Shown here one piece after another: positions 8,085 through 60,294 of a stretch of DNA of 64,000 nt. Origin of the DNA: Candidatus Buchananbacteria bacterium CG10_big_fil_rev_8_21_14_0_10_33_19 (lineage in GTDB: Bacteria > Patescibacteriota > Patescibacteriia > 2-01-FULL-39-33). The position numbers were made by a program, and so were the translations under genes. The stretch's first letter is position 1. Each line of letters opens with the position of its first letter. Location: the NCBI GenBank assembly GCA_002773855.1, contig PEZY01000012.1:68255-132254 (forward strand), read 5' to 3'. The notes below the pieces were generated by a model, which saw only the letters and a program-made list of their open reading frames with translations, searched no databases and was not told the origin of the DNA.

Positions 8085-8182
8085 TAAATAATTTAAGTCA
8101 GTTGGTGTTTCGTGGTGGTGGCTGGTAGGAATTTATAAAATAGACCACAGCCTACAACCTACGGACTACAACCTAAACAATT
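8085..8182 (+). repeat. Bipartite intergenic element, instance a (GTGG/GTAG-rich arm, TTTATAAAAT, CTAC-rich arm ending ACCTAA then ATG)
   Basis: taaataatttaagtcagttggtg...ggtagg aatttataaaat agaccacagcctacaacctacggactacaacctaaacaattATG; see findings. Confidence 0.5.
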
Positions 8183-10436: not shown

Positions 10437-11062
10437 TTGTCATTGCGAGCAGATCCTTCGTTTCACTCAAGATAAACTCCACAATACTATATTTATATCA
10501 CTAAATCACATTGGTACTTTTTTAGAAAAAGTACCACAAAAATCGCGACAGTAAAAAATTTATAGTCGAAGCTAAAACTTCGTCCCGCTAATTTTCAAAA
10601 CTCGAAACTTTTTTATTTGTATTGGTGAACAAGTTTCTCAAACATTGAAAATTTTGGGCGTAGACGACGCCCAATCACTAGGACTCCCGTTTCATCTTCT
10701 CCTTAAATTTTTAAATTGTCGCAGATTTATGAAGATATTTATTTATAAAATATATAAATAAATTCTATCATATGAAAAATTAAGTAGAAAAACTATAATA
10801 AATTAAGCGATTGTGAGTTGTCTGAGAACAAATTTTCCGCATGCCTGTCTGCCGGTAGGCAGGTTTGAACCATTTTCGATATATCCAGATAAATGAAAAT
10901 GGTGAGTTCGGAAAATAGCGTAGAGTTATTATAGTTTTTCCTTAATTTTATCGTCGCTCGTAGTTTTTGGGTTACTTTTTGCTATCAAAAAGTGACGGGA
11001 AGAAAAAAAATGACGTTTGCGAGTTTTGCGGTACTTTTGCGGTCAAAAATGCCATAGAAATA
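10437..11062. repeat. Copy 1 of a structured intergenic repeat (conserved core about 10497..10737, plus a copy-specific internal segment)
   Basis: Near-identical core to 56775..57005 (cattggtacttttttagaaaaagtaccacaaaaatcgcgacagtaaaaaatttatagtcgaag...). Shared 5' end (attgtcatt-g/t-cga) and 3' end (acgtttgcgag-y-tttg...ggtac). No ORF over 60 aa. Confidence 0.6.
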
Positions 11063-22203: not shown

Positions 22204-22297
22204 ATAATTTAAGTAAGTAGGGAGTAGTAAGTAGTAAGTGTGGATTATAAAAATAATTCTACAATCTACCACCTACTGCCTACCACCTAATAATAAT
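22204..22297 (+). repeat. Bipartite intergenic element, instance d
   Basis: taaataatttaagtaagtagggagtagtaagtagtaagtgtgg attataaaaataatt ctacaatctaccacctactgcctaccacctaataataatATG. Confidence 0.5.
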
Positions 22298-22888: not shown

Positions 22889-22958
22889 TTAGTTAGATAG
22901 TAGTGAGTAGGAATTTAAAAAAAATTCTACAACCTACAACCTACAACCTAATAATAAT
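22889..22958 (+). repeat. Bipartite intergenic element, instance e (in the position where L30 is normally encoded)
   Basis: taattagttagatagtagtgagtagg aatttaaaaaaaatt ctacaacctacaacctacaacctaataataatATG. Confidence 0.5.
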
Positions 22959-50514: not shown

Positions 50515-50591
50515 TTTAAGTAAGTGGCTGGTAATAAGTAGAAATTTTAAAAAATAATTCTACAATCTACAACCTATAACCTAATAAAAGT
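50515..50591 (+). repeat. Bipartite intergenic element, instance f (outside the ribosomal cluster)
   Basis: taatttaagtaagtggctggtaataagtag aaattttaaaaaataatt ctacaatctacaacctataacctaataaaagtATG. Confidence 0.5.
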
Positions 50592-55969: not shown

Positions 55970-56653
55970 ATGGAACAAATAAAACATATAGCTTTTATCA
56001 TGGATGGCAATCGTCGTTGGGCTAAAGATCAAGGCCTGCCCTCTTTAGAGGGGCATAAAGCTGGTTATGATAAAATGAAAGATGTCGGTGATTGGTGTAT
56101 TGATCGTGGCATTAAACATATTACGGTTTACGCTTTTTCCACCGAAAATTGGAAGAGAAGTCAGACGGAAGTTGATTATTTAATGAGACTATTAGAAAAT
56201 GCTTTAACCAAAGAACTATATGAGTTCAATAAACGAGGTATTAGATTAAAGGTGATTGGTAGTCGTGATAGATTGCCTAAATCAGTGGTCAAAGCCATTG
56301 ATAATGCCGAAGCTGAAACTGCTAATAATAACAAAGGAATTTTAAACATGGCGATTAATTATGGTGGTAGGTTAGAAATTGTGGAAGCCGTTAAAAAAAT
56401 TATTGATCAAAAAAAATCTTCAATTGAAGTAACTGAAGATTTGGTGTCTAATAATATTTGGACAGTTGGTCAGCCGGATCCGGATATTCTAGTGCGAACT
56501 TCTGGTGAACAGCGATTGTCTAATTTTTTAACTTGGCAAGTGGTTTATAGTGAGTTATTTTTTATTGAACCGCATTGGCCAGCTTTTAGTGAAGAGGATT
56601 TAGATAAAATTATAGAGGATTATCATAATCGGAATAGACGGTTTGGTAAATAA
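55970..56653 (+). CDS. uppS: Undecaprenyl diphosphate synthase
   Basis: IAFIMDGNRRWAK and FSTENWKR motifs. Confidence 0.9.
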   Translation: MEQIKHIAFIMDGNRRWAKDQGLPSLEGHKAGYDKMKDVGDWCIDRGIKHITVYAFSTENWKRSQTEVDYLMRLLENALTKELYEFNKRGIRLKVIGSRDRLPKSVVKAIDNAEAETANNNKGILNMAINYGGRLEIVEAVKKIIDQKKSSIEVTEDLVSNNIWTVGQPDPDILVRTSGEQRLSNFLTWQVVYSELFFIEPHWPAFSEEDLDKIIEDYHNRNRRFGK

Positions 56654-56658
56654 AATAA

Positions 56659-56681
56659 AAGGCGCGAAAGCGCTTTTTTTT
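56659..56681 (+). terminator. Rho-independent terminator after uppS
   Basis: ggcgc-gaaa-gcgc followed by TTTTTTTT. Confidence 0.6.
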
Positions 56682-56721
56682 ATTTTATTATATTTAGTTA
56701 TTGCCATGGGATTCCTTTGAT

Positions 56722-57177
56722 TGTCATTTCGACCGTAGCGAAGCGTAGTGAAGGAATTCTTTTTATTCTAAGTCATATTGGTACTTTTTTAGAAAAAGTA
56801 CCACAAAAATCGCGACAGTAAAAAATTTATAGTCGAAGATAAAACTTCGCTCCGCTAATTTTCAAAACTCAAAACTTTTTTATTTATAATAGTCGAAAGT
56901 TTTTCAAACATTGAAAATTTTGGGCATAGACAATGCCCAAACGCTAGAGCTCTCGTTTTATCTTCTTTTTAAATTTTTTAATTGTCGCAGTCTTATTAAG
57001 ATATTTATAATAATAAAATGCAAACATTAAAAAATATTGTGTCAATTTTATATAAAGCGAGCGCTAGAGACAATTATTCTGTCGCTATTTTGATTAATTG
57101 GCTCTAGTGAGTGTGTATAAAATTGGCCATGATTTTTTACGTTTGCGAGCTTTTGGTTACTTTTGGCGGTACAAAAG
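56722..57177. repeat. Copy 2 of the structured intergenic repeat (core about 56775..57005), directly abutting GC-rich island 1
   Basis: Core near-identical to copy 1. Three hairpins carry compensatory substitutions between the copies (gggcGt..aCgccc vs gggcAt..aTgccc; Gaaact..agtttC vs Aaaact..agtttT). Confidence 0.6.
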
Positions 57178-57195
57178 TAATAGAAGACTATTTTA

Positions 57196-57240
57196 AAATA
57201 AAAAAAGAAGCCGTCCGATCGCATGGTGCGATTGGACGGC
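57196..57240 (-). terminator. Rho-independent terminator of the minus-strand island operon
   Basis: 14-bp stem gccgtccgatcgca-tgg-tgcgattggacggc; on the minus strand it is followed by TTCTTTTTTTATTTT. Confidence 0.6.
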
Positions 57241-57251
57241 TTGGTTGGTGG

Positions 57252-57617
57252 TTAGAAGGTGTGGCAGCACTTGTAACAGTACCACTCACAACCCTCACCT
57301 CCTAGACTGGAGGAGGCGACACGACCAAGTGATCCACAATTGGGACACTCGGGCGTTTCGGTATCTTCCCAGGCCTTATCGCAGACTTGGGAGATAGCGG
57401 CTTCAACTTTGGCTTCGACATCGGCCAGAGGAGTCTCGCGAATCCACTGGGCAACATAGCCTCTGGTGATGTCGAAACTGAGTGTTTCGCTACCAAAGGA
57501 ATTCCGAACTTCTTGTGGCCAGTAGGGAATCTGGAGATTGAAGGCGAGGAACTGGTAGAGCTCGTATTGCCTGTCATTCAACCCATCGGGCCGTTGGTCG
57601 CGACTGAGACTTTTCAT
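57252..57617 (-). CDS. Hypothetical 121-aa protein with Gly-Gly followed by a Cys-rich C-terminal tail (GC-rich island 1, gene 3)
   Basis: ATG overlaps the upstream stop (ATGA). C-terminus CPNCGSLGRVASSSLGGEGCEWYCYKCCHTF. Foreign-looking GC content. Confidence 0.5.
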   Translation of the reverse strand: MKSLSRDQRPDGLNDRQYELYQFLAFNLQIPYWPQEVRNSFGSETLSFDITRGYVAQWIRETPLADVEAKVEAAISQVCDKAWEDTETPECPNCGSLGRVASSSLGGEGCEWYCYKCCHTF

Positions 57618-57727
57618 GGCCTGTCTCCGTGCATGCTACAGTCGCACTGGTGAATGGACAGTCCGGTCTTGGGACAGGCGCAGTCACAGTGATCGGTTGG
57701 TAGCCCACACAATTTACATTTATCCAT
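57614..57727 (-). CDS. 37-aa Cys/His-rich micropeptide (island 1, gene 2)
   Basis: MDKCKLCGLPTDHCDCACPKTGLSIHQCDCSMHGDRP; AGGAGG 8 nt upstream of the ATG; start overlaps the gene-1 stop (ATGgaTAA). The longer ORF-track version (57614..57874) would overlap gene 1 by 155 nt. Confidence 0.5.
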   Translation of the reverse strand: MDKCKLCGLPTDHCDCACPKTGLSIHQCDCSMHGDRP

Positions 57728-58019
57728 TATTGATTTCCTCCTGTTGTTTTGCCCACCGATGATTGGATTCCTCAATCTTGAAGACCCAACGACGTAGGGT
57801 GATTCTGGTGCCAACTGCCAAATTATGACAGAGTTTGGAAATACGATCGGGAATGGTGATGTTTTTTGCCACACCTAGAGTGGCGATCACTAAACCCAAC
57901 AAGACCAATATCAGATCGAACCAAATGTTGATAAAGGGCAAGAAATCACCCGTGACCAACATCACAAGACCAAGGCCAAAAAACATCACGCCCCATTTTT
58001 TTGCAATGCTTACAAACAT
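57720..58019 (-). CDS. Small two-TM membrane protein, 99 aa (island 1, gene 1)
   Basis: AAGGAG 8 nt upstream of the ATG; two hydrophobic helices; GC-rich codon usage unlike the host. Confidence 0.55.
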   Translation of the reverse strand: MFVSIAKKWGVMFFGLGLVMLVTGDFLPFINIWFDLILVLLGLVIATLGVAKNITIPDRISKLCHNLAVGTRITLRRWVFKIEESNHRWAKQQEEINNG

Positions 58020-58140
58020 GGCTATTTCTCCTTAGTTTTCCGCATTTCAGTTAAAAACGAACTATTACCATTATAGCATACTTTAGTATTATTGTCAAGT
58101 GTATTGAGCTTATTTTAGTATCAAGGTAGAATTAAGCCAT

Positions 58141-59394
58141 ATGGACTTATTTGATCAAAATTTAGACCAAAAAATGGCCTCAGAAGCGCCTTTGGCCGAA
58201 AGAATGCGCCCAACTACTTTGGAGCACTTTTTTGGTCAAAATGAGGTTATCGGCTCTGGTAAAATGTTACGTCAGTTAATTGAGAAAGACGATATTCCGT
58301 CTTTGATATTTTGGGGTCCACCTGGATCTGGTAAAACCACTTTGGCCAGAATTATTGCTAACATGACTAACGCTGATTTTATCTCTTTTTCGGCGGTGAG
58401 CTCTGGGGTTAAAGATTTAAAAGAGATTATTTTAATCGCCCGTGATAAGCGTAAGTTTAATAATCGGCCAACTATTTTATTTATTGATGAAATTCATCGT
58501 TGGAATAAATCGCAACAAGATGCTCTGTTGCCATATGTAGAAAATGGCATTGTGACTTTGATTGGCGCGACGACAGAGAACCCGAGCTTTGAAGTGAATT
58601 CGGCTTTACTATCTAGAACTAAGATTTTTGTTTTAAATCAATTAAGTGAAACTGATTTATTAAATATTTTAAACAGGGCTTTGGCAAATAAAGAACAGGG
58701 TTTAGGTATTTATAAATCTAAAGTCGACGATGAAACACTTTTGTATTTAGCTAAATTAAGTAATGGTGATGCTCGGGCCTCGCTTAATGCTTTGGAGTTT
58801 GCGATAAAAGCGACTAAGTCAAATAAAAATGGTATAATAAAATTAGATACTAAAATTATCAAGGAGGCGCTCCAGAAATCGCATATTTATGATAAATCTG
58901 GTGAGCAGCATTACAATATAATTTCGGCTTTACACAAATCACTGCGGGGTTCTGATGCCGATGCCGCCTTGTACTGGTTAGCCAGAATGTTAGAAGCGGG
59001 GGAAAATCCACTGTATGTGGCTCGGCGCTTGGTACGCTTTGCTAGCGAGGATGTGGGTTTGGCTAATTCACGGGCCCTAGAACAGGCTGTGGCTGGATAT
59101 CAGGCCACTCACTTTATGGGTCTGCCAGAGTGCAATATTGTCTTGGCGCAAGTAGTCGTGTATTTGGCTAAATGTCCTAAAAGCAACCAGATTTATCGAG
59201 CTTATCTGGATGTTCAAAAAGATGTTAAAGAGACTATGGATGAACCAGTACCACTACATTTGCGGAATGCGCCGACCAAATTAATGAAAGATTTAAATTA
59301 CGGTAAAGATTATAAGTACAGCCCAGATTTTAATTATGAGGAAGATCAAGACTATTTGCCAGAGTCTTTAAGGGGCAAGAAATATTTAAAATAA
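58141..59394 (+). CDS. rarA: Recombination factor RarA/MgsA (AAA+ ATPase)
   Basis: Walker A GPPGSGKTT, Walker B ILFIDEIHR, MgsA C-terminal helical domain. Confidence 0.9.
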   Translation: MDLFDQNLDQKMASEAPLAERMRPTTLEHFFGQNEVIGSGKMLRQLIEKDDIPSLIFWGPPGSGKTTLARIIANMTNADFISFSAVSSGVKDLKEIILIARDKRKFNNRPTILFIDEIHRWNKSQQDALLPYVENGIVTLIGATTENPSFEVNSALLSRTKIFVLNQLSETDLLNILNRALANKEQGLGIYKSKVDDETLLYLAKLSNGDARASLNALEFAIKATKSNKNGIIKLDTKIIKEALQKSHIYDKSGEQHYNIISALHKSLRGSDADAALYWLARMLEAGENPLYVARRLVRFASEDVGLANSRALEQAVAGYQATHFMGLPECNIVLAQVVVYLAKCPKSNQIYRAYLDVQKDVKETMDEPVPLHLRNAPTKLMKDLNYGKDYKYSPDFNYEEDQDYLPESLRGKKYLK

Positions 59395-59398
59395 TAAT

Positions 59399-59881
59399 AT
59401 GATCAGAGAAAAATCAGTCGGTATAATTTTATTCCGTTACAATAATCGCGACAAAGAGATTCAATATTTAGTTTTGTATCATCGGGGGACTTATTGGAAT
59501 TTCCCCAAAGGTAAAGTGGAGACTGGCGAATCCGAAATAGAAACCGCTAAGCGAGAATTAATGGAAGAAACCGGCATTTCTAATATTCAGCCAGTTAAAG
59601 GCTGGCGGCAACAAACTAATTTCTTTTTCAAAGAGGATCGAGGTGGCAAGCAAGAATTAATTAAAAAAGATTTTATTTTGTATTTAGCTAAAATGCCCAA
59701 AGACGCCGAGGTAAAAATATCCGGCGAGCATAATGGCTTTGCTTGGTTTAATTATAAGGTGGCCGGTAAATACTTGAAATTCAAGAGTTTGAAAGAAATT
59801 ATGCAAGAAGCCGATTCCTATGTGAGTAAACAAATAGAAGAGTATCGAAAACGAAAAAGTAATCAAAGAAAAAAGAAATAA
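59399..59881 (+). CDS. NUDIX hydrolase
   Basis: Nudix box GKVETGESEIETAKRELMEETG. Confidence 0.8.
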   Translation: MIREKSVGIILFRYNNRDKEIQYLVLYHRGTYWNFPKGKVETGESEIETAKRELMEETGISNIQPVKGWRQQTNFFFKEDRGGKQELIKKDFILYLAKMPKDAEVKISGEHNGFAWFNYKVAGKYLKFKSLKEIMQEADSYVSKQIEEYRKRKSNQRKKK

Positions 59882-59892
59882 TTTTTATAAAA

Positions 59893-59920
59893 AAATAGCC
59901 CCGTGAACGTCATTGTTCAC
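59893..59920. terminator. Bidirectional terminator (strong for the minus-strand island-2 gene, weaker for the NUDIX gene)
   Basis: ccccgtgaac-gtcattg-ttcacgtgg; AAAAAAT upstream on plus, which reads as a T run on minus. Confidence 0.55.
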
Positions 59921-59944
59921 GTGGTTTGTGTTTGTGGCGGTTAC

Positions 59945-60187
59945 CTACCGGAAGTGTCCGCCGACTTCGATTTGACGGAAGCTCCGCCGGGGGATTTTGA
60001 AGGCATTGCCATCACCATCCTCGTTTTGCTCCCAGAGCGTACTGGAACAGTACGACCATCTGCCATTAATGCGGTAAATGTGCTTGGTGCACTTCCGACC
60101 GGCGATATTGGCGATGACCTCGGCCTTGTTCGGGCCACTCATGCTGATGACGCGGACGACTCGGGGAGCATTCTTCGTGGTTGCCAT
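59945..60187 (-). CDS. Hypothetical 80-aa basic protein in GC-rich island 2
   Basis: GGAGGAAGAAGG directly upstream of ATG 60187; the ORF-track start at 60202 lacks an SD. Followed on the minus strand by hairpin plus T-run terminator. GC-rich unlike the flanks. Confidence 0.45.
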   Translation of the reverse strand: MATTKNAPRVVRVISMSGPNKAEVIANIAGRKCTKHIYRINGRWSYCSSTLWEQNEDGDGNAFKIPRRSFRQIEVGGHFR

Positions 60188-60294
60188 TCCTTCTTCCTCC
60201 ATTTTTTTGTTGGAGTTTACGGTTTAGTTGCTCACATTGAGCTAACTTTGAAAATAACTTTTTAATGGTTTACAATTTGGTTAATATTAAATTT

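Follow-up and report, generated by a model that had tools for sequence, protein, structure and literature searches.

A GC-rich island lies between uppS and rarA in the 64,000-nt stretch of contig PEZY01000012.1 (Candidatus Buchananbacteria bacterium) that was analyzed here, which we refer to as the window. To judge from its sequence, the island is an autonomous, translationally coupled operon of three minus-strand genes (g1, g2, and g3) with a foreign compositional and translational signature. We consider it an even call that the operon is a self-contained accessory cassette, moron-like in design and of foreign or exchangeable origin, that occupies a hypervariable uppS-rarA slot. As far as the evidence goes, it can be classed as an orphan accessory islet, a type of element that is common in bacterial genomes.

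The composition of the island stands out from its surroundings. The mean guanine plus cytosine (GC) content of the window is 0.332 (240-nt windows, sd 0.053), compared to a peak of 0.554 in the island. With 300-nt windows, values of 0.27-0.32 over 56800-57249 give way to 0.47-0.54 over 57100-57849 and then to 0.36-0.37, and GC is thus far from uniform (0.47-0.54 in the island vs 0.27-0.37 in the flanks). The span 57200-57900 has values of 0.47-0.55 against the mean of 0.33, and the island itself has a GC content of 0.53 against 0.33. Five segments of the 64 kb reach 0.46 in 240-nt windows: a collagen-like Gly-codon repeat, a tRNA pair, the g1-g3 island, part of rarA, and an islet at 59861-60280. 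GC at third codon positions (GC3) is 0.50 in g1 (0.45/0.33/0.50 at positions 1/2/3) and 0.57 in both g2 and g3, compared to 0.25 in host genes (sd 0.05, maximum 0.35; 16 genes including tuf and fusA), and the GC shift is therefore not an amino-acid effect.

A 1.6-kb segment that includes the island was recovered in identical context at 10 loci from NCBI, JGI, and ENA assemblies, of which nine show 100% identity and the tenth differs by a single nucleotide polymorphism. An assembly chimera is excluded because the same sequence, with identical junctions, is found in at least 10 independent assemblies. Population polymorphism was sought for a selection test, and all recovered island copies proved to be clonal. 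In assembly GCA_009991525.1 (Candidatus Falkowbacteria), g3 corresponds to GW933_00740 and g1 to GW933_00745, which is labelled a hypothetical protein, and g2 carries no annotation in the GenBank record.

Table 1. Features of the GC-rich island in the uppS-rarA slot (positions in the window).
Feature	Position	Strand	Basis
Promoter, TTGACA-17 nt-TATAAT with extended -10 TG	58098-58070	minus	12/12 sigma-70 consensus match
g1, 99-aa small membrane protein	57720-58019	minus	Open reading frame (ORF), hydropathy, Shine-Dalgarno sequence (SD)
g2, 37-aa Cys/His-rich peptide MDKCKLCGLPTDHCDCACPKTGLSIHQCDCSMHGDRP	57614-57727	minus	ORF, SD
g3, 121-aa protein, helical domain and C-terminal zinc ribbon (predicted)	57252-57617	minus	ORF, AlphaFold2 (AF2), sub-threshold profiles
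Intrinsic terminator, hairpin and T-run	57200-57242 (hairpin 57208-57242)	minus	Fold prediction
GC-rich block	57121-57900	.	240-nt windows >=0.46, peak 0.554

The operon is bounded by its own expression signals, a promoter and a terminator that are predicted from the sequence, the former by consensus match and the latter by folding. The full 12/12 promoter match is unique within 56600-58250. An equivalent is kept in the closest relative, a 2-kb Logan contig (locus L094) whose RarA is 88.7% identical, and the stretch 58067-58143 is 81% identical there. The g1 and g2 genes overlap by 8 nt (ATGGATAA), and the g2 stop and g3 start overlap by 4 nt (ATGA). AAGGAG lies 8 nt 5' of the g1 ATG, AGGAGG precedes g2, and a weaker GGAG precedes g3. 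Among host plus-strand ORFs of at least 120 aa, any 4-mer SD core was found in 5 of 68 and a strong SD in one, and the 23 well-defined host starts that were inspected have A/T-rich leaders without an SD. The terminator hairpin has 15 pairs (9 plus 6 flanking a 1x1 mismatch) and a predicted energy of -24.4 kcal/mol (z = -8.2), a stability matched by none of 200 shuffled sequences. A similar hairpin follows the g3 homolog in L094. The island is one of very few minus-strand units in the 64 kb and opposes an otherwise co-directional array of housekeeping genes. The operon is probably strongly transcribed.

The initial annotation, made by eye, had placed a 0.8-kb GC-rich island with a three-gene, overlapping minus-strand operon between a repeat copy and rarA. 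It had also described the strong SDs of two of the genes as mostly lacking in host genes, gene 1 as encoding two transmembrane segments, gene 2 as a 37-aa peptide with seven Cys and three His, and the terminator as a 14-bp stem. The computed GC and GC3 values, the SD counts, and the hydropathy profile bear this description out, and the 15 predicted pairs are close enough to the claimed stem.

The best characterized product is g3. A word-based protein search found g3 itself and nothing else. An exhaustive HMMER search of 1.84 billion representative proteins returned eight matches at E <= 1e-3, including a repeat artefact, and a subsequent profile search added three, so that g3 has about 10 relatives in total. 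The artefact, an 835-aa protein (P0006), was rejected as a repeat-driven false match. P0002 is 53% identical to g3 over the HMMER match and 55% identical over 116 aligned codons. This protein, P0003, and P0004 are full-length or N-terminal relatives, and P0007 shares the N-domain only. Six others (P0005, P0008, P0009, P0010, P0011, and P0012) possess the C-terminal module only, carried on unrelated N-termini. The shared module, CPxC..GRxGPSTLGGxGCxWYCYECCxT[FY], spans the C-terminal 34 residues and is the most conserved part of the family, with 14 invariant positions across six proteins. These relatives appear to constitute a tiny, previously unnamed family of zinc-ribbon proteins.

The ribbon Cys residues of g3 are arranged as C91-P-N-C94 and C114-Y-K-C117, with 19 residues between them and with two extra Cys (C110 and C118), and g3 thus has the two CxxC/CPxC motifs ~15-20 residues apart that are expected of zinc-ribbon knuckles. 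Residues 90-121 gave sub-threshold matches to Zn_ribbon_4/5 and IS1595 ribbons (E 5e-3 to 9e-3) and to MJ0042_CXXC (E 6e-4). Scores were 17.3 bits for Zn_ribbon_4 (cut-off 30.3), 16.5 for Zn_ribbon_IS1595 (25.4), and 19.4 for TIGR02098 (20.9). The family profile aligned CPYCKTTGKVVRIASGIWYCRKC with CPNCGSLGRVASSSLGGEGCEWYCYKC of the L37Ae/eL43 ribbon (E 0.0095), and hhalign matched it to the ribbon of a Ralstonia DUF746 protein (E 2e-4). The profiles support assignment to the zinc-ribbon fold class, with scores under the curated cut-offs and hence no membership in a named family. AF2 modeling on the family alignment (predicted local distance difference test, pLDDT, 79.8) placed helices at 15-27, 35-39, 48-61, and 64-85 and strands at 100-102 and 112-114. 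An N-terminal four-helix domain (~15-85) followed by a C-terminal zinc ribbon is therefore predicted. Between g3 and its L094 homolog, the proportion of nonsynonymous differences (pN) is 0.28 and that of synonymous differences (pS) is 0.80, and the alignment gaps span whole codons, which indicates that g3 is a protein-coding gene under purifying selection.

The g1 protein has two adjoining hydrophobic segments (~9-30 and 30-52) and a charged C-terminal tail. It has no match in Pfam, PHROG, NCBIfam, or PADLOC, and a word-based protein search returned only g1. Likewise, profile comparison did not link it to the membrane proteins found in the same slot of relatives (hhalign probability 0.2%). The g2 peptide has seven Cys and three His among its 37 residues, including CxC motifs. 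Its N-terminal knuckle CKLCGLPTDHCDC (CxxCGLPxxxCxC) recurs as CSGCGLPAEICMC in locus L011, in a 54-aa ORF that is syntenic, on the same strand, and located 3' of a membrane-protein gene (pairwise E 3e-4). In six-frame translations of 95 loci, L011 is the only place outside the window where the knuckle was found, and this locus keeps only the four-Cys knuckle of g2. A single-sequence AF2 model of g2 was of low confidence (pLDDT 61) and uninformative. At E <= 10, the sole Pfam match of g2 was zf-Mss51 (0.17), and the metallothionein family PF02069 did not appear. None of g1-g3 reached the threshold for any Pfam, NCBIfam, PHROG, or PADLOC family, and their only sub-threshold matches were to zinc ribbons. 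In three distant g3 relatives (P0008, P0009, and P0011), the g3-type ribbon is joined to Cys/His-rich N-terminal segments (e.g., CTCGLSPRD and CECVHH...CHHD). Such fusions hint weakly, in the Rosetta-stone sense, that parts resembling g2 and g3 may work together.

The content of the slot varies among relatives. With RarA as a handle, 80 related loci were fetched, and the adjacency of uppS and rarA is conserved among them. The gap between the two genes is 15-150 bp in L012, L022, L025, and L028. In L011, L013, L014, L015, and L017, where RarA is 68-78% identical, the slot holds a GC-rich gene for a multi-transmembrane-helix protein that is divergent from rarA. The GC content of these five genes is 0.45-0.56, compared to 0.37-0.46 for the locus, and their GC3 is 0.47-0.71. 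L017 has two further membrane-protein genes in the slot, and L011 encodes the g2-like peptide as well. In L094, the layout runs from rarA through the promoter, genes for a 152-aa membrane protein and for a Cys-poor protein of 76 aa (one Cys), and the g3 homolog to the terminator. Here g1 and g2 are replaced by the unrelated 152-aa and 76-aa genes, and the g3 homolog is 55% identical.

Between the window and L094, DNA identity reaches 93% beyond the terminator, 82.6% in rarA, and 81% across the promoter, falls to 69% at the g3 C-terminus, and is undetectable across 57367-58067. The slot thus evidently turns over much faster than its flanks. Since pS is 0.80 (saturated) in g3 and 0.54 in rarA, the cassette alleles appear to be older than the host split or to mutate faster. 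GC3 is high across the clade even with saturated synonymous sites, and a single old transfer is therefore unlikely because it would have ameliorated. The high GC3 could reflect either recurrent import from a GC-richer pool or a local process that keeps GC high.

Genes of the g3 type also occur outside the uppS-rarA slot. They are found between rpsU and an SprT-like gene (L091-93 and L097), beside trmD (L095), and on AT-rich contigs (L096 and L099). The relatives with a full ribbon in L091, L096, L097, and L099 have a GC content of 0.53-0.63 within flanks of 0.19-0.41, and enrichment is slight in the L095 cluster (0.40-0.52, compared to 0.35-0.41 over trmD). The relatives whose upstream regions were inspected have SDs and TTGACA-type promoters. 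An arrangement homologous to that of the island is present in both L094 and L098. The L095 cluster (209-2345) combines a homolog of the g3 N-domain with two genes that match PHROG families (7e-7 and 1e-4). This cluster and L017:267-1374 are related GC-rich cassettes that encode several small membrane proteins with His-rich stretches, among them HPNHSHRFGPHH in a 203-aa protein of L017 and HHRHWHNH in a 75-aa protein of L095.

We accordingly favor, at even chances, an exchangeable accessory cassette. Horizontal acquisition had been proposed in the initial annotation from composition, SD usage, and the neighboring repeat. The compositional and SD signatures stand, a single recent acquisition is too simple for a slot that is GC-rich across the clade, and the tie to the repeat does not hold, as the other repeat copy lies in normal AT-rich sequence. 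Several observations weigh against the cassette interpretation. The g1 gene has no detectable relative, and its status as a coding gene is suggested by signals and hydropathy. The island flanks contain no recombinase or integrase, no att-like direct repeats, and no tRNA, and neither a tRNA nor repeats, direct or inverted, were found that would convincingly mark site-specific integration. No relative was confirmed in collections of phages, plasmids, or viral contigs, and a donor lineage did not emerge. Scans of viral and metagenome contigs by ribbon and full-length alignment matched patterns, none of which was confirmed, and tblastn gave no phage match and, among plasmids, a ribbon-only likeness to the Ralstonia DUF746 protein. 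PADLOC detected no known defense family in g1-g3 or in five proteins of related cassettes, except for one CorA-like match at E 0.034. Finally, the lasting GC-richness of the slot across the clade could reflect a local force and not repeated import.

If the island is such a cassette, g2 and g3 would each bind zinc structurally via Cys4-type sites, and the three coupled products would be made in fixed proportion and act as one unit at the membrane. The simplest route of exchange would be DNA uptake followed by homologous recombination within the conserved flanks. The rapid turnover of the slot, the small size of the module, and the association of a g3-domain relative with phage-like genes lead us to suggest a conflict-type role, such as exclusion of phage or foreign DNA or a function at the symbiont-host interface, in place of a housekeeping one; we regard this role as possible, although on the doubtful side. 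More speculative, and in our estimate unlikely, is that the island represents an undescribed class of GC-rich, SD-bearing, self-promoted cassettes that circulate among the AT-rich, SD-poor genomes of the candidate phyla radiation (CPR). The hallmark of this class would be the six-Cys C-terminal ribbon (CPxC...GPSTLGGxGCxWYCYECCxT[FY]) combined with interchangeable N-termini or Cys/His micropeptide partners. Such cassettes would land in a few preferred intergenic slots without a recombinase of their own, and their composition would mark a GC-richer reservoir, for example CPR phages or episymbiont hosts. The analysis removes a false lead toward a peptide natural product, adds an unannotated 37-aa gene, and defines a tiny unnamed zinc-ribbon family. 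If the cassette pattern holds widely, it would offer a handle on accessory-gene exchange in reduced episymbiont genomes and on the sources of the genes.

Alternatively, the locus could be native, vertically inherited, and fast-evolving, a permanent site of a small membrane-protein operon upstream of rarA. A local process, such as transcription that a very strong promoter drives head-on into replication, or mRNA selection, would then keep GC high and divergence fast in the absence of exchange. Several features favor this view: seven related genomes (RarA 68-89% identical) have this position filled in the same orientation, L094 shares the flanks that hold the promoter and terminator with the window, mobility genes are absent, and the unit is head-on to the co-directional gene array. 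We nevertheless judge it unlikely. Genes of the g3 type with the same GC and SD signature occupy at least three unrelated genomic contexts, the SDs are foreign to host usage, homology between g1 and the membrane protein of L094 is undetectable, and the slot is empty in some close relatives. Furthermore, to our knowledge, transcription-associated mutation does not raise GC.

A role in metal buffering or tolerance, with g2 as a metallothionein-like peptide (Zn/Cu/Cd), g3 as a sensor or binding partner, and g1 as a membrane component for uptake or efflux, seems less probable still. The abundance of Cys and His in g2 (10 of 37 residues) and its CxC motifs are in keeping with this idea, as are the His-rich membrane proteins of L017 and L095 and the suf Fe-S assembly operon just upstream. 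Arguing against it, no protein matches a bacterial metallothionein or any metal-transport family, and g1 is too small for a transporter. The retention of only the four-Cys knuckle in L011 points to a structural zinc site and not a multi-metal cluster. Moreover, housekeeping metal systems are usually conserved, and this slot is replaced between close relatives. Of the fallback in the initial annotation, a metallothionein-like or zinc-ribbon pair, the zinc ribbon fits best, given the sub-threshold profiles of g3, and the metallothionein half is not borne out by any match at E <= 10.

The operon could also encode a membrane-tethered regulatory module in which g3, a binder of nucleic acid or RNA polymerase, is held or released by g1, with g2 as a zinc-knuckle adaptor, much as anti-sigma factors or small transcription factors of phages operate. 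The g3 ribbon does resemble the N-termini of IS1595-type transposases and other nucleic-acid-binding ribbons, and translational coupling implies a fixed stoichiometry of the products. We consider this improbable, as no structure or sequence match to any regulator is significant, the HxxxCxxC motif of zinc-binding anti-sigma (ZAS) proteins is missing, and no cognate sigma factor is encoded nearby. The g3 protein is furthermore acidic (18 D+E vs 11 K+R), which is unusual for a DNA binder.

The searches and alignments contradict a ribosomally synthesized and post-translationally modified peptide (RiPP) of the NHLP/Nif11 long-leader class, the reading put forward initially, in which g3 is a precursor cleaved at Gly-Gly to free a Cys-rich core, g2 another precursor, and g1 a partner for immunity or export. 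By eye, a long N-terminal region, a Gly-Gly, and a Cys-rich C-terminus suggest it, together with the small membrane protein in the operon. The profile alignments place the Gly-Gly within the loop of a CxxC...CxxC ribbon that aligns with eL43 and IS1595-type ribbons, so that the supposed "Gly-Gly plus Cys-rich tail" comprises the loop between the two knuckles of that ribbon together with the second of them. NCBIfam searches at E <= 10, which covered the NHLP/Nif11 models TIGR03793 and TIGR03798, SCIFF, and other precursors, gave only MJ0042_CXXC and a spurious IlvD fragment. Within +-10 kb there is no maturase (radical S-adenosylmethionine enzyme, lanthipeptide synthetase, or cyclodehydratase) and no peptidase-containing ATP-binding cassette (ABC) exporter. 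The family conserves its C-terminus and varies or replaces its N-termini, the reverse of a conserved leader with a variable core, and g2 lacks a leader-like region.

That the island is an artefact, either a chimera or a GC-rich, structured non-coding RNA with chance ORFs, can be practically dismissed: GC-rich patches in AT-rich genomes are often structured RNAs and GC-rich DNA yields long chance ORFs (here overlapping ORFs of 91 and 88 aa), but the junctions recur across assemblies, the arrangement has homologs in L094 and L098, g3 diverges as a coding sequence, the promoter, SD, coupling, and terminator signals are coherent, and Rfam gave no match in the island even at E <= 5, on which ground the structured-RNA explanation was rejected.

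The genes within +-10 kb of the island encode the DNA polymerase III alpha subunit, a PDZ-domain protein, Band_7, QueH, NUDIX, RarA, UppS, and SpoU proteins, as well as NifU, SufS/B/D/C, Rrf2, and HU. On the uppS side, the island adjoins an AT-rich repeat of 253 nt that is located 3' of uppS (56768-57019), and a second copy with 88% identity lies 3' of fusA (10501-10751). Further matches to the repeat occur at 57139-57185 and 11013-11059. The stretch 57126-57197, past the core repeat and spanning the first of these matches, is 93% conserved in L094. RNAalifold on both copies predicted a long hairpin of 77 pairs, five of which are kept via two-sided changes, and several G-U pairs fall on the plus strand. 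The repeat is a candidate structured RNA or miniature inverted-repeat transposable element. Rfam gave no family match for it or anywhere else in the window. The repeat was rejected as a part of the island, as its other copy is found in ordinary AT-rich sequence between fusA and tuf.

Two GC-rich segments lie beyond the island on the rarA side. A 300-nt tract in the interior of rarA (58891-59190) has a GC content of 0.48-0.50, and its GC3 of 0.46-0.48 is well over the host value of 0.25. Mosaicism or recombination next to the island could account for this tract, as could a codon effect where the protein is most conserved. The second segment is the islet at 59861-60280 (peak 0.56), between the NUDIX and queH genes. 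It contains a minus-strand ORF (59945-60202, 85 aa, GC of 0.51/0.47/0.70 at codon positions 1/2/3) with GGAGG just ahead of its second Met and a hairpin with a T-run at ~59896-59925. This ORF looks the more gene-like when set beside the annotated plus-strand ORF 59903-60265, which appears to encode a spurious product. It has no Pfam or PHROG match and no relative among the fetched loci.

Other repeats were noted elsewhere in the window. Tandem CTACAAC-like heptads (8145-8168, 22259-22289, 22927-22950, and 50560-50583) directly precede the starts of fusA, two genes near 22.3 and 22.9 kb, and sufC. Nine heptad matches were observed, compared to 0.1 expected, and they often follow complementary GTAGT-rich repeats. 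The heptads may form a leader hairpin or, as SDs are lacking in this genome, provide another signal for recruiting ribosomes. An exact 49-nt duplication (43283-43331 and 43491-43539, copies 208 nt apart) comprises the 3' end of tRNA-Trp and the next hairpin. Collagen-like, GGT-rich triplet repeats are located at 1260-1400 inside ORF 1089-2153.

The island can be compared with several known systems. NHLP/Nif11 precursors share with g3 a superficial layout of a ~100-residue N-terminal region, a Gly-Gly, and a Cys-rich C-terminus. They differ from it in three defining features, as g3 has no leader homology, a conserved C-terminus, and no accompanying maturase or exporter. Bacterial metallothioneins (SmtA/BmtA, PF02069) are short and rich in Cys and His with CxC motifs, as is g2. 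In contrast to their 9-Cys/2-His cluster, g2 conserves only a four-Cys knuckle in one relative, matches no metallothionein profile, and is part of an operon coupled to a membrane protein.

Rubredoxin-like ribbons (eL43/L37Ae, IS1595 PF12760, MJ0042 TIGR02098, and Zn_ribbon_4/5) are closer to g3. Like g3, they have two CxxC knuckles 19 residues apart, an aromatic residue before the second knuckle, a terminal F/Y, and two short predicted strands. The g3 ribbon scores under their cut-offs, has the extra C110 and C118 and the signature GPSTLGGxGCxWYCYECC, and is C-terminal to a novel helical domain.

The overall design is reminiscent of phage morons and genomic islets. As in these elements, a promoter and terminator of its own accompany deviant composition and translation signals, the unit is set between conserved syntenic genes, it is present, absent, or replaced in relatives, and it encodes small orphan proteins. 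Unlike morons, the island resides in a housekeeping stretch of a CPR chromosome, with no prophage, phage genes, or integrase flanking it, and the only relative among phage-like genes is the distant one of the g3 N-domain in L095.

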